Shown here: in pieces, positions 10,644 through 55,581 of the stretch
Layout: the number at the start of each line of letters is the position of its first letter
How positions within the stretch are numbered: the stretch's first letter is position 1
From: Parcubacteria group bacterium Gr01-1014_17
Lineage (GTDB): Bacteria > Patescibacteriota > Minisyncoccia > Phycocordibacterales > UBA10002
NCBI GenBank assembly: GCA_007376285.1
Contig: VMFZ01000005.1
Span: 699 to 64,698 of the forward strand
Length of the DNA stretch: 64,000 nucleotides
Reading direction: 5' to 3'
The notes under the pieces: model-generated
Database searches by the model: none
What the model saw: only the letters and a program-made list of their open reading frames with translations
Told to the model about the DNA's origin: nothing
Position numbers and translations under genes: made by a program

Positions 10644-10709
10644 GATGCAGATAGATTGAAAAGTCGCCTCATCGGCGACTCGCCGAAGAGGCGAGAAAGG
10701 TCTTTGATT

Positions 10710-11384: not shown

Positions 11385-11398
11385 GATTCTCTTTCACA

Positions 11399-11432
11399 AA
11401 GCGTCTCCCTACGGGAGACGCTTTTCTTTTGT
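11399..11432 (+). terminator. Rho-independent terminator (GCGTCTCCC-TAC-GGGAGACGC followed by a T-tract)
   Basis: A perfect 9 bp GC-rich stem followed by TTTTCTTTTG, directly after the aldolase stop codon. Confidence 0.6.
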
Positions 11433-11457
11433 ATGTTTTCTGCTATTATGAAAAACC

Positions 11458-16594: not shown

Positions 16595-17341
16595 ATGAAT
16601 ATACCGCATTTTAAGCAGTATGCAAATGATTTGCAGGTGATTGAAAAAGCATTTGGCCATCTTCCTGATTTTGATGTGAATGCTGTGTTTGCCACATGGG
16701 AGGCGGGAAATCTATTTCTTCCTGAATGGAAAAACAGTAAGTTATTTGGTTGGTGGATGAATGTAGCTGCGCATATGAGCGTTGCCGCTGTGCTTGGCTA
16801 TAAGTTGTCTTTATTTATGAAAGATTCTCTTGCGAAAGAAGGGTTTACACCGAAAGATATTATAGAAGCACTACTTGTACATGATTGGGCGAAACGTTTG
16901 GAATCTGATGTACTGGCAGATGGCGCAGAAATGGTAATGCGTGAATCAGAGATGCATCATAAGACTCTTTTGCAGTGGTTTCCGGAAAAAGTTACCGAGC
17001 TCACTGCCGCTACGGGTGACAATGGGGTACAAATTACGGACACGCGCCAATTTACCTCTGGCGAGAAAATAATCTTTTACAGCGATTATTGCACTTCTAG
17101 TTGCCGCATCGTTCCTTTCGTAAAACGACTTGAAGAATTACTGCCGCATTTCGCGCGTGGCGGGCGGTACGAAAAAGCGGATGCATACTACAAAAAACAC
17201 TACAGGATGAGCCATAATGAAAAAATAACACAATTACTTGCACCGATTGAGGCGGAGTTTATTGCACTAACAGGAGGCGCAAAAAAAAACTTCCCAGCAT
17301 GTCTCATTCCTGATGAGTTTTGCGAAAATACATATGAATAA
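16595..17341 (+). CDS. Hypothetical protein (possible HD-like motif)
   Basis: No confident family assignment. LLVHDWAKR could be an HD motif. It lies 22 bp from the divergent nucleotidyltransferase start. Confidence 0.3.
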   Translation: MNIPHFKQYANDLQVIEKAFGHLPDFDVNAVFATWEAGNLFLPEWKNSKLFGWWMNVAAHMSVAAVLGYKLSLFMKDSLAKEGFTPKDIIEALLVHDWAKRLESDVLADGAEMVMRESEMHHKTLLQWFPEKVTELTAATGDNGVQITDTRQFTSGEKIIFYSDYCTSSCRIVPFVKRLEELLPHFARGGRYEKADAYYKKHYRMSHNEKITQLLAPIEAEFIALTGGAKKNFPACLIPDEFCENTYE

Positions 17342-18413
17342 ACGTATTTTAATCACCGGTTCGGAGGGGTATTTGGGGAGCGTTATTGCGCCGTTTTTAA
17401 TTGAGCGCGGATACGACACAACAGGTCTGGACATCGGTCTTTTTAATGACGCCTTGCTTTATAAAGCGCCGCATTTTCGCGTTATTAAAAAAGACGCGCG
17501 AAATGTTTCCGCAAGAGACCTAAGGGGAATTGACGCAGTTGTGCATCTAGCGGGTATTTCTATAAACGACCCGTTCGGAAACTTGCCTCCAGAAAAACTG
17601 TACGGTCCTACGCGTGAGTACGCACGCAACATAGCGGCGCTATGCAAAAAAGCGGGCGTAAAGTTTATCTTCGCATCAAGTTGTTCAATTTACGGAAAGT
17701 CGGGGGAAGAAATGTTGAACGAGGATTCGGTCGTCCATCCGCAGATTGACTATGCAAAAAACAAACTTCAAGTGGAAGAGGACTTGGCGCTTTTGGCAGA
17801 TAAGAGCTTTTCGCCGATTGCGCTCCGTTTTGCGACTGCGTTTGGAACATCTCCGCGTATGCGGTTTGATATTGTTATAAATATGTTTGCTGGAATGGCG
17901 TTTACGGAAAAGAAAATTACGCTAAACTCGGACGGGCAAGCGTGGCGGCCGAATGTGCATATCTCGGACATTGCGCGCGCCGTGGAATGCGCGCTACGCG
18001 CGGATTATGCGGGCGGGAAATTGCTTGTACTCAATGTGGGTACGGAAAACAATAATATGAAAATTGCAGACATTGCAAACATAGTAAGCGAGGAGTGCGG
18101 AGGCACGCCGATTTTGTTTGCATTCAAGGAAGCGCGCGGCGCAAGAAGCGCATTCGTTACTAGTGCTGCGGTTTCCGCAAGCGGCGCGGATTCGCGCAAT
18201 TATCGCGTGTCGTTCGCACTCGTTAAAGAATACTTTCCAGATTTTGAATGCAAGTATTCAGTTCGCTATGGCGTAAAGGAAATGCTCGCGCAGTTCCGCA
18301 AGATTAATATGACGCCAGCGCAATTTAGAGACCGTGGATTTTACCGAATTAAACGGCTTGAAGATTTGTATTCAAAAGGCGAGATTGACAGCGAGGTAAG
18401 ATTGAAAAAATAA
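17334..18413 (+). CDS. NAD-dependent epimerase/dehydratase (extended SDR)
   Basis: RILITGSEGYLGS Rossmann motif and YAKNK catalytic region. Paralogous to the ORF at 24588-25526 (shared LRFATAFGTSPRMRFD vs LRLATVFGMSPRMRLD). Confidence 0.65.
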   Translation: MNKRILITGSEGYLGSVIAPFLIERGYDTTGLDIGLFNDALLYKAPHFRVIKKDARNVSARDLRGIDAVVHLAGISINDPFGNLPPEKLYGPTREYARNIAALCKKAGVKFIFASSCSIYGKSGEEMLNEDSVVHPQIDYAKNKLQVEEDLALLADKSFSPIALRFATAFGTSPRMRFDIVINMFAGMAFTEKKITLNSDGQAWRPNVHISDIARAVECALRADYAGGKLLVLNVGTENNNMKIADIANIVSEECGGTPILFAFKEARGARSAFVTSAAVSASGADSRNYRVSFALVKEYFPDFECKYSVRYGVKEMLAQFRKINMTPAQFRDRGFYRIKRLEDLYSKGEIDSEVRLKK

Positions 18414-18415
18414 CT

Positions 18416-19297
18416 ATGGAATATCGCGCGCTTGGAAAGACAGGAATGAAAGTGTCGGTGGTGGGAATTGAAACCCATCAGTGGAGCGGTATGGGAGGAA
18501 GATTGTTTTCTGTGCTTGATATTCGCGCTATTCTCGCGCGTGCTGAGAAAAGCGGAATAAACTTTATTGACACCGGCGAATGTTATTTCTTCCACGCCGC
18601 GGAGCGACTTTTAGGGGATGCACTCGGAAAAAACAGAAAGAAATTCATCATTGCAACCAAGTTTGGACACAAGAGCGAGCCGCAAAGAGTTGTTCCTGCG
18701 TGGACGAAAGAAGCGATTCAGAAGTCGTTGGAAAATTCTATGAAAGCACTCAATACTGATTACATTGACCTCTATCAGATTCATCTTAATAGCACTGAAG
18801 ACGCACAGAGCATTCGTACAAATATATCATCTATTAAAGAAGTGTTGCATGAAGCATGGCGCACGGGAAAAGTTCGCGCGGTCGGCATATGTTTGGGCGA
18901 TAATGAATTATTTGACACTAATGGCGCGTTGCTAAAAGATGTTGCGAAAATGCTTGATATAGAAATTGTACAATTCGTTTACAGCCGCCTTGCACGGGAA
19001 GCCGAAAAACAAATTTTGCCTTTTGCGAAAAAGCATGAACTCGGCGTGATTGCGCGCGCGCCGCTCTCTAAAGGATACCTTTCCACGCGTTTTAAGCCGA
19101 CAAATAAGAGTTATGATGCGGAGCGTATGAAAGAAGTTGAGAAAATAAAAGAAACGGAAGTGCCAGCGGGCGCAGATTTGTCGGAATGGGCGATTGCGTG
19201 GTGCGCAAGCAATCCGCTTGTGTCATCGGTTGTTCCTGGGTGCAGCGCGCCGGAACAGATTGATTCTACTGTGCGCGCGCTCAAAATTAAGGTATAG
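18416..19297 (+). CDS. Aldo/keto reductase
   Basis: YRALGKTGMKVS...INFIDTGECY...LYQIH typical AKR blocks. Confidence 0.7.
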   Translation: MEYRALGKTGMKVSVVGIETHQWSGMGGRLFSVLDIRAILARAEKSGINFIDTGECYFFHAAERLLGDALGKNRKKFIIATKFGHKSEPQRVVPAWTKEAIQKSLENSMKALNTDYIDLYQIHLNSTEDAQSIRTNISSIKEVLHEAWRTGKVRAVGICLGDNELFDTNGALLKDVAKMLDIEIVQFVYSRLAREAEKQILPFAKKHELGVIARAPLSKGYLSTRFKPTNKSYDAERMKEVEKIKETEVPAGADLSEWAIAWCASNPLVSSVVPGCSAPEQIDSTVRALKIKV

Positions 19298-19306
19298 TTT
19301 AGCGGT

Positions 19307-20560
19307 ATGAAAAATAGGATATGCAGAGTATGCAAAAGCACTGCTGTCAAGCCGTTTCTTGACTTGGGAAATCAGCCACACGGCGACAGTTTTATCGCAA
19401 CGAAGGATTTGAATGAGCACGAGCCACACTATCCTCTCCGCGCATGTTTTTGTTTGGATTGCACTACTGCGCAGATTGATTATACAGTTCCGAAAGAAGT
19501 AATGTTTGAGTATTATCCGTATGTATCAGGTACTACACGAATGCTCAAGGAGCATTTTGAAAAAAGCACTGAGCGGCTTATTAAGAAACTAAAATTAAAA
19601 AAAGGGGACTTCGTCGTAGATATAGGCTCAAACGACGGCACATGGCTTGAGTGTTATAAAAATACCGGCATCCGCTTTTTGGGGATTGACGGTGCGAAAA
19701 ATCTTGCAAAGATTGCAAACGCTAAAGGATTGGAAACATGGCCTAAGTTTTTTAACAAAAAAATCGCGCAAGAAGTAATTGCAAAAAAAGGAGGCGCAAA
19801 TCTCGTAACCGCAGCTGGCGTTTTCTTTCATCTGGAAGAACTACATTCCGTAACGGAAGGAATTGCAGAGCTTATCGGAGGCACGGGAGTACTCTGCGTT
19901 CAGGCGATTTATTTGGGAGAAATGGTGAATATCGGCGCGTTTGACCAGATTTACCATGAGCATCTAACTTATTGGACATTGCGTTCAATTGAACATTTGC
20001 TTGGGTATTATGGACTGGAGGTATTTTCGGTGGAGTTTTTCCCGATCCACGGCGGCACGATTGAATATCTGATTGCGAAGAATGGCGTGCGCAAAATTGA
20101 ACCGTCTGTTGCGGCAATGAGGAGCAAGGAAAAGAAACTCCGACTCGGAGATATTAAGACCTTTGAAAAGTTCGGTGCGCGCGTATGGGAGATGAAAAAA
20201 GAACTTATACCGATTCTTCGGAAATATAAAAAAAAAGAAAAGCGGATATTCGCACTTGGCGCGCCGATTAAGGGTTCTACGCTCCTAAATTCGTTCGGCA
20301 TCGGCACTGAACTGGTGGAATGCGCTGTGGAAGTAAACCCGCTTAAAATAGGGAAGTATATTCCTGGCGTTCGCATTCCTATTAAAGATGAGCGGACAGC
20401 CGGCGAACCGGACGCGTACCTAGTTTTACCGTGGAATTTCCTACCAGAACTTCTACGAAAAATGGAGTCGTATATAAAGGGCGGCGGCGCATTTATCGTA
20501 CCCGTGCCGAAACCAATGGTGATTGATAAAAATAATTATCACAAATTTACAAAGAAATGA
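19307..20560 (+). CDS. NDP-sugar C-methyltransferase family (TylCIII/TcaB9-like: zinc-ribbon, MT core and C-terminal domain)
   Basis: 417 aa. N-terminal CRVC...CLDC four-cysteine motif, a central SAM-MT region (VVDIGSNDG) and a C-terminal domain. The architecture matches C3/C5 sugar methylases. Confidence 0.5.
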   Translation: MKNRICRVCKSTAVKPFLDLGNQPHGDSFIATKDLNEHEPHYPLRACFCLDCTTAQIDYTVPKEVMFEYYPYVSGTTRMLKEHFEKSTERLIKKLKLKKGDFVVDIGSNDGTWLECYKNTGIRFLGIDGAKNLAKIANAKGLETWPKFFNKKIAQEVIAKKGGANLVTAAGVFFHLEELHSVTEGIAELIGGTGVLCVQAIYLGEMVNIGAFDQIYHEHLTYWTLRSIEHLLGYYGLEVFSVEFFPIHGGTIEYLIAKNGVRKIEPSVAAMRSKEKKLRLGDIKTFEKFGARVWEMKKELIPILRKYKKKEKRIFALGAPIKGSTLLNSFGIGTELVECAVEVNPLKIGKYIPGVRIPIKDERTAGEPDAYLVLPWNFLPELLRKMESYIKGGGAFIVPVPKPMVIDKNNYHKFTKK

Positions 20561-21459
20561 ATATATTCGTAACAGGCGGAACTGGATTTTTGGGTAGACA
20601 TTTGGTGCCCCACTTACAAGAAAAGGGGCACAGAGTGGTTGTCATTAATTCCAAGAATTGCGATTTGCGTGAGAAGCAGAACCTACTGCAGTTTAATGAT
20701 CAAACATTTGACAGAATTTACCATCTTGCGGCGTGGACTAAGGCGGGGGATTTCTGCCTGTACCACCAAGGAGAACAGTGGGTCATCAACCAGCAAATCA
20801 ATACGAACATTCTTTGGTTTTGGAAAGAGTTTCAGGAAAAGGCGCTTATGGTAACGATGGGCACAAGTTGCGCCTACCCGCTTGGAGATGCCGCGCTCAA
20901 GGAAGAAAATTATATGGCGGACGAGCCGGACCCGCATCTTGCCACCTACGCTTATACCAAGCGTATGCTCTACGCCGGGCTGCTGGCTTTTCAGATGCAG
21001 TTCGGAATGAAATTTCAGCACCTCATTCCGTCTACGCTTTACGGACCGAAGTTTGAAGCCGGTGATAACCACTTTATCTTTGACTTGATAAAGAAAATCC
21101 ACGCCGGAAAAACGCGCGAAGAAGAAGTGGTACTCTGGGGCACGGGCGAGCAGGTGCGCGAGCTGATGTTCGTTGACGACGCTGTACGACTCATTGAGTT
21201 TGCGGCAGAGCTTCCACAAAGCGAGTTGTTGAACCTCGGAAGCGGCGCGGGCTACAACATTCGACAGTATGCCGAGATGCTCTGCGAGATTATGGGTTAC
21301 GACCCGAAAAAGATTCGGTACGACACCACGAAGTACAGTGGAAACCCAAAACGGTTTTTTGATACAACCAAGATTAAGAAACTCTTTCCCGACTTTGAAT
21401 ATACCGATATACGCGAAGGGTTGCGCAAAACAGTTGCGTATTACGAATCCATAGTGTAG
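20557..21459 (+). CDS. GDP-L-fucose synthase-like (GDP-4-keto-6-deoxy-sugar 3,5-epimerase/4-reductase family SDR)
   Basis: MNIFVTGGTGFLGRHL...YAYTKRMLYAG...LNLGSG pattern resembles Fcl/WcaG. Confidence 0.5.
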   Translation: MNIFVTGGTGFLGRHLVPHLQEKGHRVVVINSKNCDLREKQNLLQFNDQTFDRIYHLAAWTKAGDFCLYHQGEQWVINQQINTNILWFWKEFQEKALMVTMGTSCAYPLGDAALKEENYMADEPDPHLATYAYTKRMLYAGLLAFQMQFGMKFQHLIPSTLYGPKFEAGDNHFIFDLIKKIHAGKTREEEVVLWGTGEQVRELMFVDDAVRLIEFAAELPQSELLNLGSGAGYNIRQYAEMLCEIMGYDPKKIRYDTTKYSGNPKRFFDTTKIKKLFPDFEYTDIREGLRKTVAYYESIV

Positions 21460-21468
21460 GTTTCTATT

Positions 21469-21939
21469 ATGAAGCAGAAGAAATCAACAATGAAAATGCG
21501 GGTTTTCAACCCCGTATGCAATCTCAATACAATTAAAGACGGCCGGGGCGGGGTATTTTCGTTTGTCCCGCCTGCGCCGATTGCCGAATGGACTCATCAG
21601 TTTATCAAGGCGGGAAAGATACGCGGCAACCATTACCACCCGGAGTTTGACGAATATGTACTTCTTGTTGATGGCGCTGGTGTGGAAGTGGAGAAAGACC
21701 ACAAAACAAAGCAGGAACATTTTGTATATATGAGCAAAGGCACTTGCATTTTCATTCCGCGCAACACGCGCCATGTGTTTATGGCGATGACGGATTGCGA
21801 GTCGGTGTCTTTTCTCACGAAACCGTGGGACAAGTGCAAGCGCCCGATTGTACATGAAAACTTAGGACTCGGCATAGGCGACCACGGCGACCCAAAAAGC
21901 GAGTACTATAAAGCAAGGAATCAGAAAATTACATCATAA
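21469..21939 (+). CDS. Cupin-domain protein (sugar keto-isomerase/epimerase-like, WxcM/FdtA-like)
   Basis: Small cupin fold with HYHPEFDEYVLLVDG...IFIPRNTRH. Sits among NDP-sugar modifying genes. Confidence 0.4.
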   Translation: MKQKKSTMKMRVFNPVCNLNTIKDGRGGVFSFVPPAPIAEWTHQFIKAGKIRGNHYHPEFDEYVLLVDGAGVEVEKDHKTKQEHFVYMSKGTCIFIPRNTRHVFMAMTDCESVSFLTKPWDKCKRPIVHENLGLGIGDHGDPKSEYYKARNQKITS

Positions 21940-22901
21940 TGCCTGTTCGTTTTGGAATCATCGGGTGTTCGCGGGTGGCGCAGCGGCGATTTTTGCCCGC
22001 CCTCGCCGCTTCGGAACGCGCGGCGCTTTCTTTTGTCGGCAGTCGAGATGCGGAGAAGGCAAAAAAATATGCAAATGAATTTCACGCTGCGCATTTTGGA
22101 AATTACGAAGATGTTCTCGCGAGCAAGAATGTTGATGCTGTGTACATTTCAACTCCGCCAACTTTGCATTACGAGTGGATTGTGAAATCCGCGCGCGCTG
22201 GTAAGCATATTATCTGCGAGAAGCCCGCGTGTATGGACTATGAATCGGCGCACCGAGCAGTTCAAATATGCAGAGAAGCGGGCGTGCGCCTTATGGAAAA
22301 TTACGCCTTTTTATACCACCCACAACACGCCGCCGCGCGCGATATTATGTCAGAAATCGGAAGCATAAAACGAATAAGCGCGCGCTATCTTTATCCGTTT
22401 CCGCATGGAGGAGATATCCGATTTAATCCTGCATTGGGCGGCGGCGTGTTCCACGATTCGTTTGGATATCCGCTAGCGCTCGCACGATTTTACTTCGGAC
22501 AATTTCCGGAATCAATATCATGCGTGCAAACAATGGACGCGCATCGCGGTATTGATACTGCAGCGGAAATTGTTTTACATTTCTCACGAAATCGCGCGCT
22601 TGATGGAAAGGTGCAAATGGGAAGTGCCGAATACGCATCGTCGTATACTTTACAAGGAGATAGCGGAAGTGTGGAAATAGTGCGTGCATTTGCCGTTGAT
22701 GCCGATAAACCCGCGGAAATCTTGCGTACAATCAATGGCGAGATTGAAAAGATTCAGATACCACCAGCAAGCCAGTTTCAGCTCGCGCTTGACGATTTCT
22801 GCGATGTTGTAAGAGGGAAAACACAAAAGGATTTTGATGGGGAACTTATTGCACGCGCAAAAATTAAAGATGCCGCAGAGCAGTGTCTTATGAGAAAATA
22901 A
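21939..22901 (+). CDS. Gfo/Idh/MocA-family NAD(P)-dependent oxidoreductase
   Basis: VRFGIIGCSRVAQRRFLPAL...EKP motif region and a C-terminal alpha/beta domain. Confidence 0.65.
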   Translation: MPVRFGIIGCSRVAQRRFLPALAASERAALSFVGSRDAEKAKKYANEFHAAHFGNYEDVLASKNVDAVYISTPPTLHYEWIVKSARAGKHIICEKPACMDYESAHRAVQICREAGVRLMENYAFLYHPQHAAARDIMSEIGSIKRISARYLYPFPHGGDIRFNPALGGGVFHDSFGYPLALARFYFGQFPESISCVQTMDAHRGIDTAAEIVLHFSRNRALDGKVQMGSAEYASSYTLQGDSGSVEIVRAFAVDADKPAEILRTINGEIEKIQIPPASQFQLALDDFCDVVRGKTQKDFDGELIARAKIKDAAEQCLMRK

Positions 22902-23868
22902 TTTGCGAGCCGGGTGCATTTATTTTTACCGGCAGAATATCTTTTTTAGGAAAGGTCTTTGTAAGTTTCGCGCGCGCGTACGGCGGAGCGAAAAAAAGAA
23001 CATATCCTCCTCCGCCCGCGCCAAGTAGCTTACCACCCCATGCACCAGCCTCTAATCCTTTTTGATATAGACTATCTATGGTCGGATTGGACACTCCTCC
23101 GTCAAGCGTGCGTTTTATTTTCCACGCATCGTGGAGCTGTTCTCCAAATAGTTGGAGCGGCTTATTTTTTGTCAGAATGTCATATCCTCTGTACGCCATT
23201 TCTTTGAGGGTGCGTAGCGCATCGGTATTTTGGTCTATGCGTTTTATTTGGTGTGCGGTTACAGCAGATGCTCTTCGCATAATGCCAGTATAGACGAGAA
23301 AAAGATGACTCTCAAAATCAGCAAGCCGTTTGTGAGAGATGGATACGGGGCGCACTAGGAAATCTTTTTCTGTTTTGAATTCAATCAAATTGAAACCTCC
23401 ATACGCCGCGGTAACTTGATCCTGACAACCAACTTTATCCTTTACTTTGTGTTTTTCAATAAAGATTGCCTCGCGTGCCAGTTTTTCCGCCGTTACTATT
23501 TTTTTATTAAAACAGTGTAGAGCATGAAGTACCGATACAGTTAGCGAGGAAGATGAGCCGAGCCCACTGAATGCGTGAGTATCAAAAATACTATGTAGCG
23601 CGACATCTTTTGCAACCCCCGTGTGTTTAAGGCACTCTCTAAACACATTATGTTGTATATGATGCACTGTTTTTGCCAATTCCACACTGCTGTATGAAAG
23701 GCGGATTGCATAATCAAACATATGGCTCAAAAATCGGTTTGCGGTAACATACGCATATTTATCAATCGCCGTTGCCAACACAGCGCCCCCTTCCTTAAGA
23801 AAGTATTCGGGATGGTCGGTACCTCCGCCGAAAAAACTTATGCGGAGTGGAGTGCGCGCAATAATCAT
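22888..23868 (-). CDS. hddA: GHMP kinase, D-glycero-alpha-D-manno-heptose 7-phosphate kinase (HddA)-like
   Basis: MIIARTPLRISFFGGGTDHPEYF N-terminus is the HddA hallmark. GHMP motif SGLGSSSS. Sits in an operon with an HddC-like nucleotidyltransferase. Confidence 0.65.
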   Translation of the reverse strand: MIIARTPLRISFFGGGTDHPEYFLKEGGAVLATAIDKYAYVTANRFLSHMFDYAIRLSYSSVELAKTVHHIQHNVFRECLKHTGVAKDVALHSIFDTHAFSGLGSSSSLTVSVLHALHCFNKKIVTAEKLAREAIFIEKHKVKDKVGCQDQVTAAYGGFNLIEFKTEKDFLVRPVSISHKRLADFESHLFLVYTGIMRRASAVTAHQIKRIDQNTDALRTLKEMAYRGYDILTKNKPLQLFGEQLHDAWKIKRTLDGGVSNPTIDSLYQKGLEAGAWGGKLLGAGGGGYVLFFAPPYARAKLTKTFPKKDILPVKINAPGSQIIFS

Positions 23869-23875: not shown

Positions 23876-24595
23876 TTACATTACCACAGGGTACATCTTA
23901 CGCGCTATTCTGTAACGTTCGGGTACCCCGATGTCAATAAGAATCTCGTCTGTTCTGAAACCATAACAATGTCGACGGAAAAGGGTGGGGAAGAATTCAT
24001 CTTCAAGTGAAAACGCGCTTTTATCCGGAAATAGTTTCGCGATTTTGCGGTTGACGATGTAGATTCCGGCATTCAAATGAAATGTTCCGTTGGCATCTGC
24101 GTCGGTTTTTTTTCTCCAGCCAGTAACACGCTGCGTCTCATCCATCTCCACTATGTTTCCACTGTCCCCTCTGTACGATTTGGTAAGCGCCATCGATAAG
24201 ATTCCTTCTTTTTCATTGTGGAAAGCACATAGTGCGTTAAAGTCAGGACTGAAGACCATATCTCCATTCATAATGAAAAATCGCTCTGCGCCGTTCGTAA
24301 AATGGAGCGCCCGTTTAACAGCGCCGCCAGTGCCAAGCGGTTCATCTTCTTCGGAAAATACGACGCGGTAGCCGCGCTCTTCACAATGTGCTTTCACCTG
24401 TTCTTTGAGATATCCGACGCTTAAAATGATTTTCTCAAAACCCGCTTTCGTAAGCATTGTCATAATCATATCCAAAAGCGTTTTATCGCCCATCGAGGCG
24501 AGTATTTTTGGCAGGTCAACAAAAACACTGCGCAAACGCGTACCAAGACCGCCGCACAAAACAATGATAGGTATATTTCGCAGTTCGTTAGACAT
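23876..24595 (-). CDS. hddC: D-glycero-alpha-D-manno-heptose 1-phosphate guanylyltransferase (HddC)-like nucleotidyltransferase
   Basis: IPIIVLCGGLGTRLRSV...LPKILASMGDKTLLD...LGTGGAV NTP-transferase motifs. Adjacent to the HddA-like kinase. Confidence 0.55.
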   Translation of the reverse strand: MSNELRNIPIIVLCGGLGTRLRSVFVDLPKILASMGDKTLLDMIMTMLTKAGFEKIILSVGYLKEQVKAHCEERGYRVVFSEEDEPLGTGGAVKRALHFTNGAERFFIMNGDMVFSPDFNALCAFHNEKEGILSMALTKSYRGDSGNIVEMDETQRVTGWRKKTDADANGTFHLNAGIYIVNRKIAKLFPDKSAFSLEDEFFPTLFRRHCYGFRTDEILIDIGVPERYRIARKMYPVVM

Positions 24596-25526
24596 TTGAA
24601 TACTGGTTGTTTTTGAGAATCGTAAAACCTTTGATGAGTTCCTCTATACCACGGTCCAGATTCCATTCTGTGTTGAATCCGGCGGCGGCAATGCGCGCAT
24701 TGGAGACGATATAATCGCGCTTATCTGGGTCTTCGCCAATTGGAGCTTCAATATAGGTAAACTTTGGCAGATGTTTTTTAATAATCGCACACAACTCAAG
24801 TTTTGAGAGGTTGGCGTCATCAAGCCCCACATTGTAGGGCCTGCCTCTCATTTTTTGAAAGTTTTCTATGCCGTGGATAAATACTCGCACGACATCCTGG
24901 ATATGTATGTAGTTTCGCTTGAAGTGCCATTCAAAAATAAGCATTGCGCGATCATTCACGGCGCGGTACACGAAATCGTTGACCAGCAAATCCAATCGCA
25001 TTCTTGGCGACATTCCAAATACGGTCGCAAGGCGGAAGCTTAACCCATTTTCGCGCGCCAACGCCACTTTCTCGGCCTTTACTTTGGTGACACCGTAGAA
25101 AGAGATTGGGCGGAGTGGCGACTTTTCAGTACAGAACTTATTTTTTTCGCCAATGCCATATCCGCTGTTGGTAATGGGGATGAGCATGCGCTGGCTCTTG
25201 CTCATAAGTTTTCCGAGCAGGGCGACTGCCCCAAAGTTGGTTGTTTCCGCCGCGATTTTGTTTTGCTCGCAAAGCGGCGCTCCCACGAGCGCCGCGAGCG
25301 GAATAATAATGTCGGCTTTTTCTACGAGTGGCTTGATTGTATTTTTGTCGCGGCAGTCACCACGCACAATGTTGAATGTTTTATACTGGCAACAATCGGT
25401 CAAACTGTTCTGGCGGTACATAAAGTTGTCCAACACGGTAACCACATAACCACTTTCAAGAAGCGCCGGGGTCAATACCGAGCCGATGTACCCCGCGCCG
25501 CCGGTGATGAGTATTTTTTGGATCAT
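24588..25526 (-). CDS. NAD-dependent epimerase/dehydratase (extended SDR; candidate NDP-heptose modifying enzyme)
   Basis: KILITGGAGYIGS and YGVTKVKAEK. First gene of the minus-strand hddA/hddC operon. Confidence 0.6.
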   Translation of the reverse strand: MIQKILITGGAGYIGSVLTPALLESGYVVTVLDNFMYRQNSLTDCCQYKTFNIVRGDCRDKNTIKPLVEKADIIIPLAALVGAPLCEQNKIAAETTNFGAVALLGKLMSKSQRMLIPITNSGYGIGEKNKFCTEKSPLRPISFYGVTKVKAEKVALARENGLSFRLATVFGMSPRMRLDLLVNDFVYRAVNDRAMLIFEWHFKRNYIHIQDVVRVFIHGIENFQKMRGRPYNVGLDDANLSKLELCAIIKKHLPKFTYIEAPIGEDPDKRDYIVSNARIAAAGFNTEWNLDRGIEELIKGFTILKNNQYSNV

Positions 25527-25632
25527 ACGTCTCTAGAAAGGCACACTATATCTCTTGTCTGCGATTTTTGCAATTTCCCAGCATATTTTTTGTGTTTCCA
25601 ATGTGGGGGTGATAGGATGAAAAAACACTCCT
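25527..25632. promoter_or_regulatory. Divergent intergenic region (epimerase operon on -, E1 alpha/beta operon on +)
   Basis: ~105 bp spacer between divergent starts. No motif verified. Confidence 0.25.
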
Positions 25633-26559
25633 ATGAACATGGACAAAAGAAGCATCGCGCGCGAGGTTATTCGATTGCGCGTACAGCAAATGGTAGTCAA
25701 TGAATGGTATAAAGCAGGAAGATTTAAAATCCCCATTCACCTTGGCTTCGGTCATGAGGCGCTCGCGGTTGCGGTAAGTGCCGTGATGGGGCGCGGCGAC
25801 TGGTTGTTTTTGACACACAGAAATATCGCCTATAATCTTGGTCGGGAAAAATCTCTCAAACCATTTCTTGATGAATATTCGCTTAAACCGACCGGTGTTG
25901 CTGGCGGGCGATTCGGCTCCATGAATTTGATACATCCTTCGCGCGGCATTCTGTATACATCAAGCATTTTAGCAAATCAGTTTCCAGTGGCGGTTGGGTC
26001 CGCGTTTGGCTTCACGGTTTCCGATGCAAACGGTATTGCTATTGTGTGCGGTGGCGATGGAGCAATTGAAGAAGGCGCATTTTACGAAAGCGTACTTATG
26101 GCAGCAAGCATCAAAGCTCCCATACTTTTTTTAATTGAAAATAACGAGTGGTCAATGCATACCTCCATTCGCGAACGCCGTGTGGATATTGACCTTAAAA
26201 AACTAGCGAGTTCGCTAGGAGTGCTGTATGTGTCCTTGAAAGGTAATAATGTGTTCGCCTATATTCAGGCGCTTGCCCGCGCTCGAAAACAAATTCTTAC
26301 ATCGCGCGCGCCGCTCTGTATTGAGGTAAAGGTAAATACACTGGGCGATTGGTATGATATGAAAAATCCGCTCTATCCTCAAGGTAAATTTGTCAAATAT
26401 CATACAGGAGCTTCGCCAAGCGTTATGCTCTCAGAAGAAGTGGTGCTCCAAAAAAATGCTGACGATCCGCTTTTTGTTTTAGGAAAACTTATTTCAGAGG
26501 CATCAGTAAAAAAAATGGCCGTTCAAGAATTGGCACACATAAGAAAAGAAATGATATGA
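25633..26559 (+). CDS. Thiamine-diphosphate-dependent E1 component, alpha subunit (pyruvate/acetoin dehydrogenase-like)
   Basis: GGRFGSMNL and GDGAIEEGAFYESVLMAASIKAPILFLIENNEWSMHTS match the E1 alpha TPP motif (GDG...NN), not transketolase. Confidence 0.7.
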   Translation: MNMDKRSIAREVIRLRVQQMVVNEWYKAGRFKIPIHLGFGHEALAVAVSAVMGRGDWLFLTHRNIAYNLGREKSLKPFLDEYSLKPTGVAGGRFGSMNLIHPSRGILYTSSILANQFPVAVGSAFGFTVSDANGIAIVCGGDGAIEEGAFYESVLMAASIKAPILFLIENNEWSMHTSIRERRVDIDLKKLASSLGVLYVSLKGNNVFAYIQALARARKQILTSRAPLCIEVKVNTLGDWYDMKNPLYPQGKFVKYHTGASPSVMLSEEVVLQKNADDPLFVLGKLISEASVKKMAVQELAHIRKEMI

Positions 26560-27491
26560 CTTACCTTTCATTTTTAAATTGTATTTTAAGAAAAGAGATT
26601 GCCACTCATACGAATCTCGTCGTGTTCGGGCAAAATATTTCCGCCGGTTCATACCTTGGTGGGCTCACCGCCGGTCTTTCTGTACCGCCAGAATCACGCA
26701 TTATCAATACCATTAATGCAGAGAATTCTCTCGTTGGTTTCGGTTTCGGGTTGGCGCTTTCAGGCACCAATGCAATATTTTTTATGCGGCAGATTGATTT
26801 TTTACTTCTCACAACTGACCAACTAGTAAATACCTACAATATCATCCGCAATAATCCCGCAGGACTTCCTGGCTCTTTCACCATTATGACTACTGTTATT
26901 GACCAAGGGTATGAAGGTCCGCAGTCAAGCTCCAACAATTTGGGGGACTTTTGTTCGCTTGCCCGCATTGACGCGTTTACCGTCACGAACAAAAGAGATA
27001 TTGAAGCGATTATTCCCGCACAACTGGTGTCGCCTGGTTTTCGAATTATCGCGGCGAGTCCGCGGTTGTACAAAACCGACCTGCTTGAACCGCCACTTGC
27101 CTATCGTTCTCCAACCGGCAACCTTTTTCAGTATCAGGAAGGGAATGATACGACGATTATCTGTTTTAATTTATCTTTTCCATATGGGTACGCACTTGCT
27201 CAAGCGATGCAGACAAAAGGGCTCCACCCGTCGCTTTTCAGCGTAAATATTCCCGTGCCGATTAAGTGGAATGTTATTTTAGAAAGTGTGAAAAAAACAA
27301 AAAAGCTCGTTATATTTGACGACAGTAAAAGTATGAATTGTTCGTATTACGCGCTTTTGGCGGAGGCGCGACTCCGTTTCAATTTGCAAAAAGAAATTAT
27401 CATTACCCGGCATTTAGGGAGTGATTGGCTTACGCCGAATTCGGACCAACTTGAAATTGATTACCAAAAGGTTATTAAAGATATCGTATGA
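26556..27491 (+). CDS. E1 component beta subunit (transketolase-like pyrimidine-binding and C-terminal domains)
   Basis: VVFGQNI...GFGFGLALSG pattern of E1 beta. Translationally coupled to the alpha subunit (ATGA overlap). Confidence 0.6.
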   Translation: MTYLSFLNCILRKEIATHTNLVVFGQNISAGSYLGGLTAGLSVPPESRIINTINAENSLVGFGFGLALSGTNAIFFMRQIDFLLLTTDQLVNTYNIIRNNPAGLPGSFTIMTTVIDQGYEGPQSSSNNLGDFCSLARIDAFTVTNKRDIEAIIPAQLVSPGFRIIAASPRLYKTDLLEPPLAYRSPTGNLFQYQEGNDTTIICFNLSFPYGYALAQAMQTKGLHPSLFSVNIPVPIKWNVILESVKKTKKLVIFDDSKSMNCSYYALLAEARLRFNLQKEIIITRHLGSDWLTPNSDQLEIDYQKVIKDIV

Positions 27492-28252
27492 ATTTTGAAT
27501 ATAACGAGATAAAAGGAAAACGCGTGCTGGTTACAGGCGCGAGTTCAGGAATTGGAGCCGCGATTGCAAGACAATTCGGTGCACGCGGCGCGCGCGTTGG
27601 AATCCATTACGGTAAAAACCACATCGCGGCTCTTGCTGTGCTTCGTATGATTCGAAAATCCGGTGGCGAGGGTAAACTTTTTGGCGGAGATCTTCGTATA
27701 GAAAAAGTCGCACAAAATCTCATGAGAGATTTTGTGCGCGCATTTGGCGGCATTGATGTTTTGGTGAATAACGCAGGTGCGCTCTATACTTACCGTCATT
27801 TTAGCCAATTAGATGGAAAAATGTTTGATGATATGTTTGTGTTACATTCAAAAGCGCCGTTTTTGCTTATGCAAGCCGCTTTTGTTCCTATGCAAAAGCA
27901 ACGCTTTGGGCGAATCATCAACATAAGCACCAACGCCATTACATACGCCGGTTCGCACACGCTGAACTATTGTGCCTCAAAAGCCGCGCTTGAGGCGATA
28001 TCTGCCGGTTTTGCGCGCGAGGGGGCGAAGGATAACATATTGGTAAATGTAGTGCGCTGTGGATTGATTGATACGCCAATGCATCGTAAGACTCAGGAGT
28101 ACGGAGAAACACGCTTTCAAGAAAGAATAAAAATGATTCCGCTTGGCCATGCGGGCAGTCCCGATGACATTGCGCAAATGGTTCTCTTTTTGGCGTCAGC
28201 GTGCGGCGATTTTATTACCAACGAGATATTTACTATTGCCGGAGGAGAATGA
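27488..28252 (+). CDS. Short-chain dehydrogenase/reductase (SDR)
   Basis: VLVTGASSGIGAAIA...NNAG...YCASKAALE classical SDR motifs. Confidence 0.75.
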   Translation: MNFEYNEIKGKRVLVTGASSGIGAAIARQFGARGARVGIHYGKNHIAALAVLRMIRKSGGEGKLFGGDLRIEKVAQNLMRDFVRAFGGIDVLVNNAGALYTYRHFSQLDGKMFDDMFVLHSKAPFLLMQAAFVPMQKQRFGRIINISTNAITYAGSHTLNYCASKAALEAISAGFAREGAKDNILVNVVRCGLIDTPMHRKTQEYGETRFQERIKMIPLGHAGSPDDIAQMVLFLASACGDFITNEIFTIAGGE

Positions 28253-28254: not shown

Positions 28255-28292
28255 AACCCCCACACTTGTCCGACAAGTGTGGGGGTATTGTG
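28255..28292. terminator. Bidirectional terminator hairpin (15 bp perfect stem ACCCCCACACTTGTC / GACAAGTGTGGGGGT)
   Basis: Perfect inverted repeat between convergent gene ends (SDR + strand, radical SAM - strand), followed by a T-rich run on the + strand. Confidence 0.6.
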
Positions 28293-29231
28293 TTATTTGA
28301 AGTACTTTCCCGCTTCCGTGTAGGGAACGGTGCAGTGCTTGCACATAGGCAAGTTATTTTTCTTGCCATCCAGATGCAGTTTTCGTACGGTCCCAAACTT
28401 TGGGGAATTAAATATCGCGATGGTGTTATCGTTTGCGACATTACCAAAGTTGTATTTTCCCTCGCTCCAATCTTCACAGCAGTAAGTTACTTGGCCATCG
28501 GCAAGTATATACATCACCTGGAACGGGAAAGGACAGGCGGTTTTTTCAAGAGTGTCATCTCGGTTGATTCCAACTTCAAGCGAACCCCATGAATGGGCCG
28601 GCAGGACTCCAAGGAAGTCACGCCGCGCGCGGTCTATGCGATGTTCCCAGAACTCAAGAAACGCTTTTTCTTCATGCGCATTGGTTTCTTGTCTGACAAA
28701 CCGTACAAGAAATCGCGTCTGGTAATTGCCTTCATTTCGCAAGGCAATCATCTGTAGGCAGTTCGCGACCGTCTTTTCCAAACGGCCGTTGACTCGAATC
28801 GCTTCATAAATCGGCGCGGTTGCGCCGTCAATAGAAAAGATAATCGTGTCAATACCGCTTTCAAGCATTTCTTCCTGTTTCTCCCGCGACAGGTTAAACA
28901 GCGCCATATTGCTGGAGAAGCCGATGTTTCTGAACCCGTGTTTTTTTGCATACCGAATTCTTCTCGACATCAGTTGGTCAAGAAACGGCTCTCCCAAGCC
29001 AAAGAGGTCCATCATCTCAACCTCTCCATTATGTGGAGAAAGGTCGTTGATGATTTTCTCAAAAAGCTCCATCGTCATAATGCCACGGACTTTTTTTGTT
29101 GGCGTGCTTATTGGGCACATTGGGCATCGCAAGTTGCAAATGCCACCGATTGTTTCAATCGTTACTCTCCGCGGAATAATTTGTCCCTGCGGAGCTGAAG
29201 GGGGCGTAAATGCCCATGGTTTTTCTGTCAT
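28293..29231 (-). CDS. Radical SAM protein with C-terminal SPASM/twitch cysteine cluster
   Basis: CNLRCPMCP (CxxxCxxC) near the N-terminus. C-terminal CPFPF...YCCEDW...CKHC cluster. The start is placed at MTEKPW because the upstream gene stops at 29228. Confidence 0.65.
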   Translation of the reverse strand: MTEKPWAFTPPSAPQGQIIPRRVTIETIGGICNLRCPMCPISTPTKKVRGIMTMELFEKIINDLSPHNGEVEMMDLFGLGEPFLDQLMSRRIRYAKKHGFRNIGFSSNMALFNLSREKQEEMLESGIDTIIFSIDGATAPIYEAIRVNGRLEKTVANCLQMIALRNEGNYQTRFLVRFVRQETNAHEEKAFLEFWEHRIDRARRDFLGVLPAHSWGSLEVGINRDDTLEKTACPFPFQVMYILADGQVTYCCEDWSEGKYNFGNVANDNTIAIFNSPKFGTVRKLHLDGKKNNLPMCKHCTVPYTEAGKYFK

Positions 29232-29800
29232 AATACTCCTTTCGTTGTTCGGACAAATTCTTTCCATGTCCCGTAGTTTTTGTGAGTTTCAGATATAAGC
29301 GGCTTGACACAGTCGAGCGGCCATTTGATGTTCACATCAGAGTCATTCCATATGATTCCGGCGCTTAAGTCCTCACGAAACCGATTGTCGGCAAAAGCCA
29401 TAACTTCTGCGTTGTTGGTTATAGATAGACATCCGTGTGCAAAACCGCGCGGCACGAACAGTGCATTGTGTTTTTCTGCTGTTAAGTCAACGGCGAGCCA
29501 TTCGCCGAGAGTAGGGCTTTTTTTTCTGATGTCTATGACCGCCCAAAACATTCTGCCTCGCGTTGCTACCAGCATTTTCCCTTCCATTTCTGGCGGAAGT
29601 TGCACATGCATACCGCGCAAGACATTTTTGTGTTTTGAGTGTACCAGACTTATCTGTTTCCACTCCGGTATGCCCCCAATTTTCTTTTTGAGTTCTTTCT
29701 CATCAAAAAACCGAGTCAGGCAGCCCCTGTGGTCCGTTATATGCCAAGGGATAATCTCAACTACCCCCGCCAATTTTGTCGGACGGATTTCCAGTTCCAT
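29228..29800 (-). CDS. NDP-4-keto-6-deoxy-sugar 3,5-epimerase (RmlC/RfbC-like cupin)
   Basis: GVVEIIPWHITDHRGCLTRFF...RGMHVQ...FVPRGFAHG motifs of the dTDP-4-dehydrorhamnose 3,5-epimerase family. Confidence 0.7.
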   Translation of the reverse strand: MELEIRPTKLAGVVEIIPWHITDHRGCLTRFFDEKELKKKIGGIPEWKQISLVHSKHKNVLRGMHVQLPPEMEGKMLVATRGRMFWAVIDIRKKSPTLGEWLAVDLTAEKHNALFVPRGFAHGCLSITNNAEVMAFADNRFREDLSAGIIWNDSDVNIKWPLDCVKPLISETHKNYGTWKEFVRTTKGVL

Positions 29801-29884: not shown

Positions 29885-30727
29885 TCATCTTTTCTGAATC
29901 GCGAGAGCCATTACCGCATAATGATTCCGCAGAGTTTTTATCCGCCTTATGCTCAATGCTTCAAAGCCGCATTCTTTAAGAATCCGTGTAAGCGTTTCCT
30001 GGTCAAACATCCACAAGTGGCACGCATTAAAAATATCATCATCTTTTGGTTTGAGGCGAGACGCCAGTGCATCAGGCACTTCAACATAAAGAAACGAATT
30101 TGCATCCATATCTTTGCGAACGCTTTTCAGAAGCGACCTGGGATTCGCCATATGTTCCAAGACATAAACAAGGGAAATAAGATTGAATTTCCTATGAAAT
30201 CGGTTGGGCTTGTAAAACTTCTGTATCAGCGGAATTTTCAGTTTCTTTTTTACAAAGTCGTTGTTTTTGGCAGGGTCAATAATATAAGAACGCCAAAGGC
30301 GGTCTTGAAACTCATAAGCGAAAATTGCCGCGCCGCCTCCTATATCAAGCGCCGAGAACGGCGGCGCGGGCTTTTTAATAATGCCGTCTTCCCACACCCT
30401 TTCGATCGTTTCTTTTATCCAGCAAACTCTCTTCTTTGTTTCAGATTGATGTTCCGGCAGAGCTGTTATTTTGTTGAAGATTTCTTCTGCGGTTTCTTTT
30501 CTCCAATTGGCATTCGTGTCTCTATAGGCCGTTTCGTATATTGTGTGTATGACTTTCGGCGGTCTGGAATAGATGGAATAAAAGAAACCGCATTTTGAAC
30601 ACCGAACCCACTTTCGGAAATAATTTTTTGCGGTTACTCTCACTGCCGCTTCATATCGGTCCGGTTCTTTGTATGAGAAGATTACTTTATGAGAAGACGA
30701 CTTGCATAAAAGGCACGGCGATGGCAT
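29885..30727 (-). CDS. Class I SAM-dependent methyltransferase with N-terminal zinc-ribbon
   Basis: CLLC...CSKC cysteine pairs, then LDIGGGAAIF...LVYVLEHM MT motifs. Confidence 0.55.
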   Translation of the reverse strand: MPSPCLLCKSSSHKVIFSYKEPDRYEAAVRVTAKNYFRKWVRCSKCGFFYSIYSRPPKVIHTIYETAYRDTNANWRKETAEEIFNKITALPEHQSETKKRVCWIKETIERVWEDGIIKKPAPPFSALDIGGGAAIFAYEFQDRLWRSYIIDPAKNNDFVKKKLKIPLIQKFYKPNRFHRKFNLISLVYVLEHMANPRSLLKSVRKDMDANSFLYVEVPDALASRLKPKDDDIFNACHLWMFDQETLTRILKECGFEALSIRRIKTLRNHYAVMALAIQKR

Positions 30728-30793
30728 ATAGTGAAAGATACTATTCCAACTGCGTGTTGGAGTCAATTTTGTTTCGTGCTATTCTTTTTTTCT

Positions 30794-31690
30794 ATGATAC
30801 CTCACACAGAGCGTCGACACCCTTTGGTCAGTATCGGCGTTCCCACCTATAATCGAGCCGACCTTTTGCAACTCACACTCGATTCGCTTCTTGCGCAGAC
30901 CGACAAAAATGTAGAAATTATTATCTCGGACAACGCGTCAACCGACGGCACTGAAGCACTCTGCCGCGCATATGCAGATAGAGAAAATCGAATTTTCTAC
31001 TTTCGACAAGAAAAAAACAGAGGTCAAATGAACAATTATTCGTTCCTTTTGCAGAAAGCGCGCGGGAAGTATTTTATGTGGGCGCAAGACGACGATTCTA
31101 TAGACCAAAACTATGTGGAAGTTCTTACTGATGTGTTAGAAAAGAATCCTGAATACTCGGTTGCCTTGAGCCATTATTACGAAAAACGAGTTGGCGCACT
31201 GACTCCCTTGCCCATCCGCGCTATCACCCACGACTACACGCATAAAAGTTATCGCGAACTGTACGAGCGTTGCCTGTATGGGAAAATCAGCGCGCTTCTG
31301 CTCTACGGTTTATATCGGACCGCGTGTATAAAAGTGCTCTACGCCCGACAGCTTCCCCTCACCTTTAACAATCTTTTGTTGTGGATGTCGGAACTCGTGC
31401 TTGCGGTAAAGGTGTATTCGGTGCCCCTGCTTTTATATACGCATACGCAAGATGTCAGGAGCCACGAAGCGCGACAACCAGACGGTCCGCTTACGCTCGC
31501 AGAGAAAAGGCCTTTTGCAATTACACACTATGTCGCGACCGGCCCCTTTTGGCTTCTTACTTCGCGCGCGATTCCCTTACATAGGAAATTATTGATTTTC
31601 GGCCCGTGGATTCGCCGCGCGTGGAAATATAAACGCAAAATATTTAATGAATGGCGCTGCGCATTTCTCAATATGTTTCGGCGCGTATGA
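30794..31690 (+). CDS. GT2-family glycosyltransferase
   Basis: VSIGVPTYNRADLL...IISDNASTDGT...DDD typical GT-A motifs. The track start at 30731 overlaps the divergent gene, so ATG 30794 is preferred. Confidence 0.65.
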   Translation: MIPHTERRHPLVSIGVPTYNRADLLQLTLDSLLAQTDKNVEIIISDNASTDGTEALCRAYADRENRIFYFRQEKNRGQMNNYSFLLQKARGKYFMWAQDDDSIDQNYVEVLTDVLEKNPEYSVALSHYYEKRVGALTPLPIRAITHDYTHKSYRELYERCLYGKISALLLYGLYRTACIKVLYARQLPLTFNNLLLWMSELVLAVKVYSVPLLLYTHTQDVRSHEARQPDGPLTLAEKRPFAITHYVATGPFWLLTSRAIPLHRKLLIFGPWIRRAWKYKRKIFNEWRCAFLNMFRRV

Positions 31691-55506: not shown

Positions 55507-55581
55507 TTTTCGTAAAGGCGCTTCATTACGGGGCGCCTATTTTTTTGGAATATGTTGTCCTGTGTTAGTGTTATAGCAATT

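Follow-up and report, generated by a model that had tools for sequence, protein, structure and literature searches.

Orphan E1-type thiamine diphosphate enzyme pairs as candidate sugar-branching carboligases in surface-glycan loci of Patescibacteria and ammonia-oxidising archaea

The DNA analysed here, called the window, is a stretch of 64,000 nucleotides (64 kb) from Parcubacteria group bacterium Gr01-1014_17, a member of the Patescibacteria (assembly GCA_007376285.1, contig VMFZ01000005.1, positions 699 to 64,698 of the forward strand). Three genes at positions 25633-28252 of the window encode the alpha and beta subunits of a thiamine diphosphate (ThDP)-dependent E1 enzyme and a short-chain dehydrogenase/reductase (SDR). 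On balance, the two subunits probably form an E1-type carboligase that works on its own, independently of lipoyl groups, and joins a unit derived from a 2-oxo acid to a nucleoside diphosphate (NDP)-keto-sugar, the SDR then acting as a reductase. We favour this reading because the pair is homologous to E1 enzymes and retains their ThDP residues, has no lipoyl acyltransferase (E2) or E3 partner nearby, has lost the beta-subunit acylation histidine to asparagine, lies in an operon among nucleotide-sugar genes, has relatives fused to sugar enzymes, and has precedent. Enzymes of this kind are already known from antibiotic clusters; what is new is a bounded clade, Group A, which has its own signature and is found where uncultured bacteria and ammonia-oxidising archaea encode their surface glycans. 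It is a tentative but real possibility that Group A as a whole is a clade, not described before, of E1-type carboligases blind to lipoamide, which supplies the surface glycans of Patescibacteria, ammonia-oxidising Thaumarchaeota and scattered Gram-negative lineages with higher-carbon sugars that are C-branched and possibly derived from heptoses.

The operon and the identity of its E1 subunits

The three open reading frames (ORFs) were placed correctly by an earlier note on this DNA, and the sugar-locus setting it described is borne out by neighbours with family matches (Table 1). Each of the two junctions, E1 alpha/E1 beta and E1 beta/SDR, is a 4-bp overlap. Taken with the 106-bp divergent region upstream and a hairpin that fills the gap between the convergent SDR and radical SAM (S-adenosylmethionine) genes, the overlaps indicate one three-gene transcription unit, and E1 alpha, E1 beta and the SDR form a single operon. 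Promoter signals in the upstream region amount to weak sigma-70-like matches. The alpha protein is 100% identical to TSC84146.1 at NCBI, from a metagenome-assembled genome (MAG), the deposited version of which begins two codons later. A 77%-identical alpha relative carries the name 'Parcubacteria group bacterium Gr01-1014', and homologues number in the hundreds.

The pair belongs to the heterotetrameric 2-oxoacid dehydrogenase E1 superfamily, as judged by an E1_dh domain, a ThDP/Mg motif, Transket_pyr and Transketolase_C domains and the activating glutamate. Alpha matches Pfam E1_dh with 105.7 bits (E 2.9e-30), and beta matches Transket_pyr with 23 bits and Transketolase_C with 24 bits, both slightly under the Pfam gathering cut-offs. 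Sequence searches of the PDB with alpha, with beta and with a 34-member alpha profile matched only E1 chains of heterotetrameric 2-oxoacid dehydrogenases. An AlphaFold model of alpha (pLDDT 89.2, pTM 0.90) gave the same answer in Foldseek, where the top 50 of 50 matches were E1 alpha chains of branched-chain 2-oxoacid dehydrogenase (BCKDH) or pyruvate dehydrogenase (PDH), with TM scores of 0.72-0.80 and about 20% identity.

A split transketolase, raised as an alternative in the earlier note, was rejected and has next to no chance of being right. It could draw on the weak Transket_pyr and Transketolase_C matches in beta, but these domains are common to all E1 beta subunits, alpha matches E1_dh and not Transketolase_N, and the PDB searches by sequence and by fold led only to 2-oxoacid dehydrogenase E1 chains, alpha or beta. 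True split transketolases do occur beside an E1 pair in a related locus (L058, see below), where they are distinct genes. No protein with TPP_enzyme_N or TPP_enzyme_M domains was found by Pfam annotation of the 64-kb window, so the single-chain architecture of YerE-like branching enzymes is not seen in it.

Absence of E2 and E3

Pfam annotation covered every substantial ORF of the 64-kb window, and none carries a Biotin_lipoyl, 2-oxoacid_dh, E3_binding or Pyr_redox domain. Likewise, phmmer queries with Escherichia coli AceF and Lpd found zero matches in the window. The comparison was extended to other genomes by a scan of one genome per species, which gave 51 loci. Those with at least 34% identity were taken as the family and comprise 42 non-redundant loci including the window, while 10 further loci with 23-31% identity served as an unplanned control. 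The ORFs of all loci were probed with the window proteins, AceF and Lpd. E1 beta follows E1 alpha in 41 of the 42 family loci, the exception stopping at a contig edge.

Neither E2 nor E3 was found with these probes in any of the 42 family loci. In the control loci with canonical E1, the same probes found E2 to be the next gene after E1 beta in 7 of 10. The earlier note had described an E1 pair without its partners and had named co-transcribed E2 or E3 genes beforehand as the finding that would count against its proposal; the pair proved to be an orphan across the window and all 42 loci. An ordinary E1 with E2 and E3 close by is therefore rejected.

Active-site residues

Residues were compared in an alignment of the 10 E2-linked controls and 41-42 members of the family. 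In alpha, the ThDP/Mg motif is kept in the family (G141-D142-G143, E169 and N171), as are H36 and H257; profile alignment puts the latter, with a weak score, on the catalytic-loop histidine of human PDH E1 alpha. In beta, the ThDP-activating glutamate, E56, is kept and aligns with Glu59 of Geobacillus stearothermophilus E1 beta (1W85).

Other positions have changed throughout. The histidine of the beta 'HS' motif, present in 10 of 10 controls and in a looser set of relatives (Group B, see below), is replaced by Asn127 in 41 of 41 family members; positions here may be misaligned by as many as 3 residues, but the region still offers no histidine. In 34 of the 41 there is none within about 14 residues of position 127, and the others have none at a conserved position. 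We take the missing histidine to be the equivalent of G. stearothermophilus beta-His128, required for the reductive acylation of lipoamide. It corresponds to His146-beta' of human BCKDH, which the titles of PDB entries 1OLS, 1OLX and 1OLU name as a residue of reductive acylation, and 1olx_B reads Ala146-Ser147 at the HS site. In alpha, the histidine of the 'GSMH' motif is Asn98 in 42 of 42 members and the tyrosine of the 'YR' motif is His62 in all. The phosphorylation-loop motif 'RGHSMSDP' gives way to 'TLGDW...GKFINYHAGP' plus an insertion of about 20 residues, and the final 45 or so residues of alpha are absent. With the ThDP residues kept and the acylation histidine lost, the chemistry that forms a ThDP-bound carbanion looks intact, while the residue for handing over to lipoamide appears to be gone.

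An ordinary 2-oxoacid or acetoin dehydrogenase E1, its E2 and E3 encoded elsewhere in the genome, would show the same E1 fold and ThDP motifs, and the search for E2 and E3 covered the 64-kb window. It is nevertheless very improbable. The NCBIfam matches to PDH E1 are far under the equivalog cut-offs (140 against 394 bits for alpha, 45 against 321 bits for beta), alpha shares 21-27% and beta 18-22% identity with E2-linked E1s, and the beta acylation histidine is missing from every member compared. The lack of a nearby E2 in the family as against the controls speaks in the same direction, as does the existence of fusions to sugar enzymes. The pair lacks the nearby E2 and E3, the HS-motif histidine and the equivalog-level scores of a functional PDH, BCKDH or acetoin dehydrogenase E1. 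To our knowledge, Patescibacteria generally lack 2-oxoacid dehydrogenase complexes, which we also count against an ordinary E1.

A bounded clade and its relatives

When 150 representatives were sorted by signature, 65 full-length proteins and about 18 fragments fell into Group A, with essentially zero intermediates, and the window alpha bears the Group A signature. As far as these sequences go, the Group A clade has sharp limits and an active-site signature peculiar to it. The earlier note had spoken of a rare modification; metagenomes show no scarcity of this gene family. Its hosts include Patescibacteria (labelled Saccharibacteria, Paceibacteria, Liptonbacteria and Giovannonibacteria), the Thaumarchaeota Nitrosopumilus and Nitrosotalea, Nitrospirae, Lentisphaerae, Chloroflexi, Marinimicrobia, Cytophagaceae and several Proteobacteria, among them the isolate Jiella sp. 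LLJ827.

Fusions were sought among cluster representatives at 50% identity. In a Giovannonibacteria protein (P0121) a sugar nucleotidyltransferase is fused to a family alpha domain (51% identity), and in another protein (P0123) the fusion partner is an NDP-sugar epimerase-fold domain (45% identity). Among more distant E1 alpha domains the fusion partners are an epimerase, a cytidylyltransferase and a CoA_binding_3 domain.

The looser Group B keeps both histidines, that of GSMH in alpha and that of HS in beta. Some of its pairs also lie in sugar loci without E2 or E3, namely L058, L060 and an Azospirillum oryzae plasmid. Locus L058 (3062-15315), a sugar locus from a marine metagenome, holds three two-subunit ThDP enzymes, two of them split transketolases and one a Group B E1 pair; an SDR gene comes directly after the E1 pair and another directly after one of the two split transketolases. 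The plasmid of the cultured A. oryzae (L063, NZ_CP054615.1, record 203654-224592) carries an orphan Group B pair flanked by a SIS gene, a PfkB heptose-type kinase, radical SAM and GT4 (glycosyltransferase family 4) genes and followed by two DegT aminotransferases. It offers a tractable system for E1-type branching in a surface polysaccharide.

Two further loci deserve mention. The sugar locus L002, which holds a full-length family pair, has in addition a second, truncated E1_dh-like gene (206 aa) with a 181-aa partner at 17144-18314, beside an aldo-keto reductase (AKR) and a GHMP kinase. An orphan E1 pair on plasmid pSGRIFU1 of Streptomyces griseofuscus (L062, record 137096-139142) lies not among sugar genes but among those for a condensation-domain protein, an acyl carrier protein, a phosphopantetheinyl transferase and ketosynthases, and looks like another non-canonical use of E1 pairs. 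A tblastn search of the plasmid collection with the window alpha and a Group B alpha returned acetoin- and PDH-type genes and no member from an actinomycete sugar cluster, and look-ups of cluster names for the family representatives gave zero actinomycete names.

Conserved sugar-gene context

Throughout the family the setting of the pair is one of nucleotide-sugar tailoring. Its commonest neighbour among the 42 family loci is an RmlC-like epimerase (35), followed by a GHMP kinase (32), an epimerase-fold 'partner' of about 295 aa (30), a CmcI-type methyltransferase (26), a sugar C-methyltransferase and a SIS/GmhA-like protein (23 each), a nucleotidyltransferase (20) and a HAD/GmhB-like protein (10). 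An RmlC-like epimerase gene implies a keto-sugar intermediate. The four family members with Pfam-annotated contexts show the same nucleotide-sugar setting. By Pfam annotation of immediate neighbours in 40 loci, the gene upstream encodes an epimerase-fold protein in 18-19 and an RmlC-like protein in 5; the gene downstream encodes a CmcI/RMNT methyltransferase in 12-13, adh_short in 6, a GHMP kinase in 4, a PhyH dioxygenase in 3 and a B12-radical SAM protein in 3. These downstream genes, which would reduce, methylate or oxidise, match the follow-up chemistry listed for acetyl-branched sugars (PMC12247030).

The window shares part of this context. An SDR orthologue occurs together with the pair in 10 of the 42 loci, an AKR is found in the window and in 5 of the 42, and orthologues of Epi312 (>380 bits) occur in several family loci. 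A sub-module of SDR, radical SAM/SPASM enzyme, RmlC-like epimerase and methyltransferase MT293 recurs in the window and in L006, L013, L020, L022, L023, L027, L030 and L034. The radical SAM gene itself, together with the three others, is found beside E1 alpha/beta in at least seven further loci, L046 among them. The orthologue search found no 295-aa partner, CmcI, SIS or HAD gene in the window. We found no paper describing E1 pairs in glycan loci of candidate phyla radiation (CPR) bacteria or of ammonia-oxidising archaea.

Precedent in known branching pathways

E1-like pairs in deoxysugar clusters were proposed to act in avilamycin biosynthesis as AviB1/B2 (PMC4425429). In the paulomycin cluster Pau11 (325 aa) and Pau12 (345 aa) are 37% and 34% identical to AviB1 and AviB2, respectively; inactivation of pau11 abolished paulomycin production, consistent with a role in the cluster, although the mechanism was termed 'unknown' (PMC4425429). 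The acetyl branch of paulomycin is reduced by an AKR, Pau7 (PMC4753412). EvdU5/EvdS3 were still hypothetical in 2023 (PMC10338323), and for the E1-type pair of aldgamycin there is also genetic evidence of C2 branching. AviB1/B2, Pau11/12, EvdU5/S3 and the aldgamycin enzymes are now grouped as the 'alphaKADH2' class of sugar-branching enzymes (PMC12247030). According to the same 2025 review, about 120 alphaKADH2 clusters are recognised, branching takes place at C3 or C4, the branch may be reduced, methylated, oxidised or transaminated, and KbDH-alpha/beta ligates pyruvate, its sole donor, to cyclic ketones in vitro (PMC12247030). The AviB1/B2 precedent invoked by the earlier note is therefore real, and better established than stated there (PMC4425429, PMC10338323, PMC12247030). 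The review assigns branching of surface lipopolysaccharide (LPS) to the unrelated YerE-like class (PMC12247030), which can also take long, aldolase-derived hydroxy-2-oxo acids (PMC9306805).

A proposed pathway and the alternatives

In the pathway we favour, alpha and beta would assemble as an E1-type alpha2beta2 ThDP enzyme, which would decarboxylate a 2-oxo acid, most probably pyruvate, to a ThDP-bound acyl-anion equivalent. Instead of passing to a lipoyl-E2, the acyl anion would be added to a ring carbonyl (C3 or C4) of an NDP-keto-sugar, for whose supply the kinase, nucleotidyltransferase, extended-SDR and RmlC-like enzymes encoded nearby would be responsible. This would give a C-acetyl-branched tertiary alcohol, the new side-chain ketone of which the SDR would reduce to a 1-hydroxyethyl group. 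The methyltransferase and radical SAM enzyme would then tailor the sugar further, and the glycosyltransferase would place it in a cell-surface glycan. In this scheme we infer the carboligation step, which donor and acceptor are used, the position attacked and the substrate of the SDR.

The SDR is of the classical type. It matches adh_short with 146 bits and adh_short_C2 with 150 bits in Pfam, its motifs are intact (TGASSGIG at 16-23, NNAG at 94-97, S147 and Y161-x3-K165), and its closest solved relatives are carbonyl reductases (FabG-type enzymes and sugar carbonyl reductases). The order proposed in the earlier note, branch addition followed by reduction, gains support from the parallels with YerE/YerF and with Pau11/12 and Pau7 (PMC9306805, PMC4753412), and from adh_short genes, which come immediately behind E1 beta in 6 of 40 loci and behind the Group B pair in L058. 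The same note had proposed a 4-keto acceptor. Its keto-sugar nature is supported by the context; the 4-position is not, as inspection of the three nearby extended-SDR genes, Epi312 included, found the Asp-Glu motif of a 4,6-dehydratase in none of them, and C3 is equally possible.

It is quite unlikely, though conceivable, that the pair is a carboligase while the SDR acts earlier, oxidising a hydroxyl of the sugar to give the ketone acceptor or reducing a ring carbonyl, so that the branch ketone is left as it is or handled by the AKR at 18416-19297. The missing dehydratase motif would suit this, as would the reduction of the paulomycin branch by an AKR (PMC4753412), the AKR genes here and in the other loci, and the 32 of 42 family loci that have no SDR orthologue. 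Against it stand the 4-bp overlap of the SDR with E1 beta, which is the order expected of sequential steps, the adh_short genes that directly follow E1 beta elsewhere, and the carbonyl reductases among the closest relatives of the SDR.

The pair could also be ThDP-dependent but catalyse something other than C2 branching, such as decarboxylation of a sugar-derived 2-oxo acid, transketolase-like extension, retro-acyloin cleavage or the transfer of a longer, aldolase-made hydroxyacyl unit in the manner of ErwE or MygE. We consider this unlikely, if less so than an SDR acting early. The alpha site is remodelled relative to pyruvate-using E1s (N98, H62, N64, S110-S111, N115 and R182-R183), split transketolases co-occur with the Group B pair in L058, and YerE-like enzymes are known to use long hydroxy-2-oxo acids of aldolase origin (PMC9306805). 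A class II aldolase and a transaldolase or fructose-6-phosphate aldolase (FSA) are encoded side by side in the same glycan locus (10656-12198, + strand) and could, by analogy with the aldolases that feed ErwE-type branching enzymes, supply unusual 2-oxo-acid or ketose donors. However, these genes are about 14 kb away and outside the family census, every characterised alphaKADH2 sugar enzyme takes pyruvate and gives C2 branches (PMC12247030), and no synthase of the NeuB or KdsA type for 2-oxo-sugar acids is present in the four Pfam-annotated family contexts. Decarboxylation of a 2-oxo-sugar acid in particular is judged unlikely, the NeuB gene of the window (59487) being 30 kb away and its like unseen in those four contexts.

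Several points weigh against branching by pyruvate-derived C2 transfer followed by reduction. The altered substrate-site residues of alpha (His to Asn98, Tyr to His62) suggest that the donor may not be pyruvate and that the chemistry could differ. As the nearby extended-SDR genes have no dehydratase motif, the keto group of the acceptor may lie at C3 as well as at C4. The SDR has an orthologue in only 10 of 42 loci and could equally make a ketone instead of reducing the branch, and an AKR of the Pau7 class is also encoded nearby, at 18416-19297. The window has none of the 295-aa partner, CmcI, SIS and HAD genes, and what is deduced from the other loci transfers only partly to it. Exclusion of E2 and E3 spans the 64-kb window, and distant genes may exist elsewhere in the genome. 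Finally, the function of the Group A members is predicted from their genes, and their putative kinship with AviB1/B2, Pau11/12 and KbDH from description and gene setting.

The surrounding locus

Wherever an ORF of the window matches a family, the gene is one for glycans or nucleotide sugars. Those nearest to the operon are listed in Table 1.

Table 1. The E1 operon and neighbouring features (window coordinates)
Feature	Coordinates	Strand	Remarks
Upstream tailoring operon	17313..22901	+	GalE-like epimerase, AKR, sugar C-methyltransferase, GDP-fucose-synthase-like reductase, FdtA-like cupin, Gfo/Idh/MocA oxidoreductase
GHMP sugar kinase, HddA-like	22888..23868	-	142 bits, below cut-off
Sugar-1-phosphate nucleotidyltransferase, HddC-like	23876..24595	-	138 bits, below cut-off
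Epi312, extended-SDR NDP-sugar epimerase/oxidoreductase	24588..25526	-	divergent from E1 alpha; 'TNSGYG...YGVTK'
Divergent intergenic region, Epi312 (-)/E1 alpha (+)	25527..25632	.	106 bp; presumed promoter region of both units
E1 alpha-like ThDP-binding subunit	25633..26559	+	308 aa; Pfam, NCBIfam, PDB sequence search, model
E1 beta-like subunit	26556..27491	+	311 aa; Pfam, NCBIfam, PDB sequence search
Classical SDR ketoreductase	27488..28252	+	254 aa; Pfam
Hairpin	28256..28286	.	perfect 14-bp G+C-rich stem, 3-nt loop; bidirectional terminator-like
Radical SAM/SPASM (twitch) enzyme	28293..29267	-	convergent with operon; part of recurring sub-module
RmlC-like NDP-4-keto-sugar 3,5-epimerase	29228..29800	-	
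Class I SAM methyltransferase MT293	29885..30766	-	part of recurring sub-module
GT2 glycosyltransferase	30731..31690	+	candidate transferase of finished sugar

The AKR of the upstream operon (18416-19297) is of the same enzyme class as Pau7. Across the whole window (1-64000) there are several GT1, GT2, GT4 and GT9 glycosyltransferases, three TagF-like glycerophosphotransferases, a carbamoyltransferase, an ABC exporter, a UDP-GlcNAc 2-epimerase, at least five nucleotidyl- or cytidylyltransferases and many methyltransferases. Such a 64-kb run of surface-sugar genes is an unusually large investment for a member of the Patescibacteria, whose genome is probably small.

At 7789-8655 (+) an RpiB-type sugar-phosphate isomerase is fused to a cytidylyltransferase-like domain. 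A NeuB-cupin fusion of 512 aa (59487-61025, +) and two CMP-sugar cytidylyltransferases (55552-56295 and 61930-62712, both +) suggest a second pathway, of the nonulosonic-acid type, in the same locus. A B12-binding radical SAM protein of 894 aa (56348-59032, -) has about 280 residues ahead of its first Pfam match, and a 633-aa protein with peptidoglycan-binding and fn3 domains (31694-33595, -) lies amid the glycan genes. Five ORFs of 248-533 aa are without a Pfam match (9402-10643, 12978-14363, 16595-17341, 33668-35269 and 45034-46389); the one of 248 aa is conserved beside a nucleotidyltransferase in L006 and L013.

Implications

If the favoured reading is true, E1-type ThDP carboligases would be a widespread tool for making branched surface sugars, not confined to the antibiotic pathways of actinomycetes. 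They would be in use in CPR bacteria and ammonia-oxidising archaea, organisms with almost uncharacterised envelopes that, for all the smallness of their genomes, devote tens of kilobases to glycan genes, and whole uncultured groups would display branched sugars new to glycobiology. The exchanges of histidine for asparagine would mark the conversion of a complex-bound dehydrogenase E1 into a free-standing C-C ligase.

The signature, which includes alpha N98 and beta N127, separates the family from the metabolic E1s now annotated as 'pyruvate dehydrogenase E1', a label that inflates the central metabolism inferred for MAGs of CPR bacteria and archaea. For the asymmetric synthesis of tertiary alcohols, an active goal of ThDP biocatalysis (PMC12247030), the clade is also a source of new catalysts.

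Comparison with known systems

In fold the nearest known systems are the E1 components of PDH and BCKDH and the acetoin dehydrogenase E1 (AcoA/AcoB; Ao:DCPIP OR), with which the window pair shares the ThDP/Mg motif, the beta glutamate activator and the alpha loop histidine. It differs from them in having no E2 or E3, in its low identity (18-27%), in the replacement of both the beta acylation histidine and the alpha GSMH histidine by asparagine, in the insertion of about 20 residues that takes the place of the phosphorylation-loop motif, and in the loss of the last 45 or so residues of alpha. The Group B pairs are likewise orphan E1 alpha/beta pairs in heptose- or nucleotide-sugar loci with SDR or DegT genes following, but they keep the canonical GSMH and HS histidines, have no TLG insertion and are about 32% identical to the window alpha.

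Proposed function brings the pair close to YerE/YerF, which make yersiniose A, and to ErwE, MygE and MMAR_2332, which make longer-branched LPS sugars: like these, it would use ThDP to add an acyl anion to an NDP-keto-sugar destined for a surface polysaccharide, with reduction of the side chain by an NAD(P)H-dependent enzyme afterwards. The YerE-like enzymes are, however, single-chain ThDP (flavo)proteins of the acetolactate synthase/decarboxylase type, and their architecture is unrelated to that of an E1 alpha/beta pair.

A close parallel is with the alphaKADH2 enzymes (AviB1 AAK83190/AviB2 AAK83191, Pau11/Pau12, EvdU5/EvdS3, AlmDI/DII and KbDH-alpha/beta). These too are E1 pairs without E2 or E3 among NDP-sugar tailoring genes, have enzymes for the reduction, methylation, oxidation or transamination of a ketone acting after them, and are proposed to add a pyruvate-derived C2 unit to a C3 or C4 keto-sugar. 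The window subunits, of 308 and 311 aa, are shorter than Pau11 and Pau12 with their 325 and 345 aa, and the family carries a signature that includes beta Asn127 and alpha Asn98, the comparison with alphaKADH2 enzymes being by description. The setting differs as well, for the alphaKADH2 pairs belong to secondary-metabolite clusters, whereas the present pair lies in a cell-surface glycan locus of Patescibacteria and has archaeal and Gram-negative relatives.

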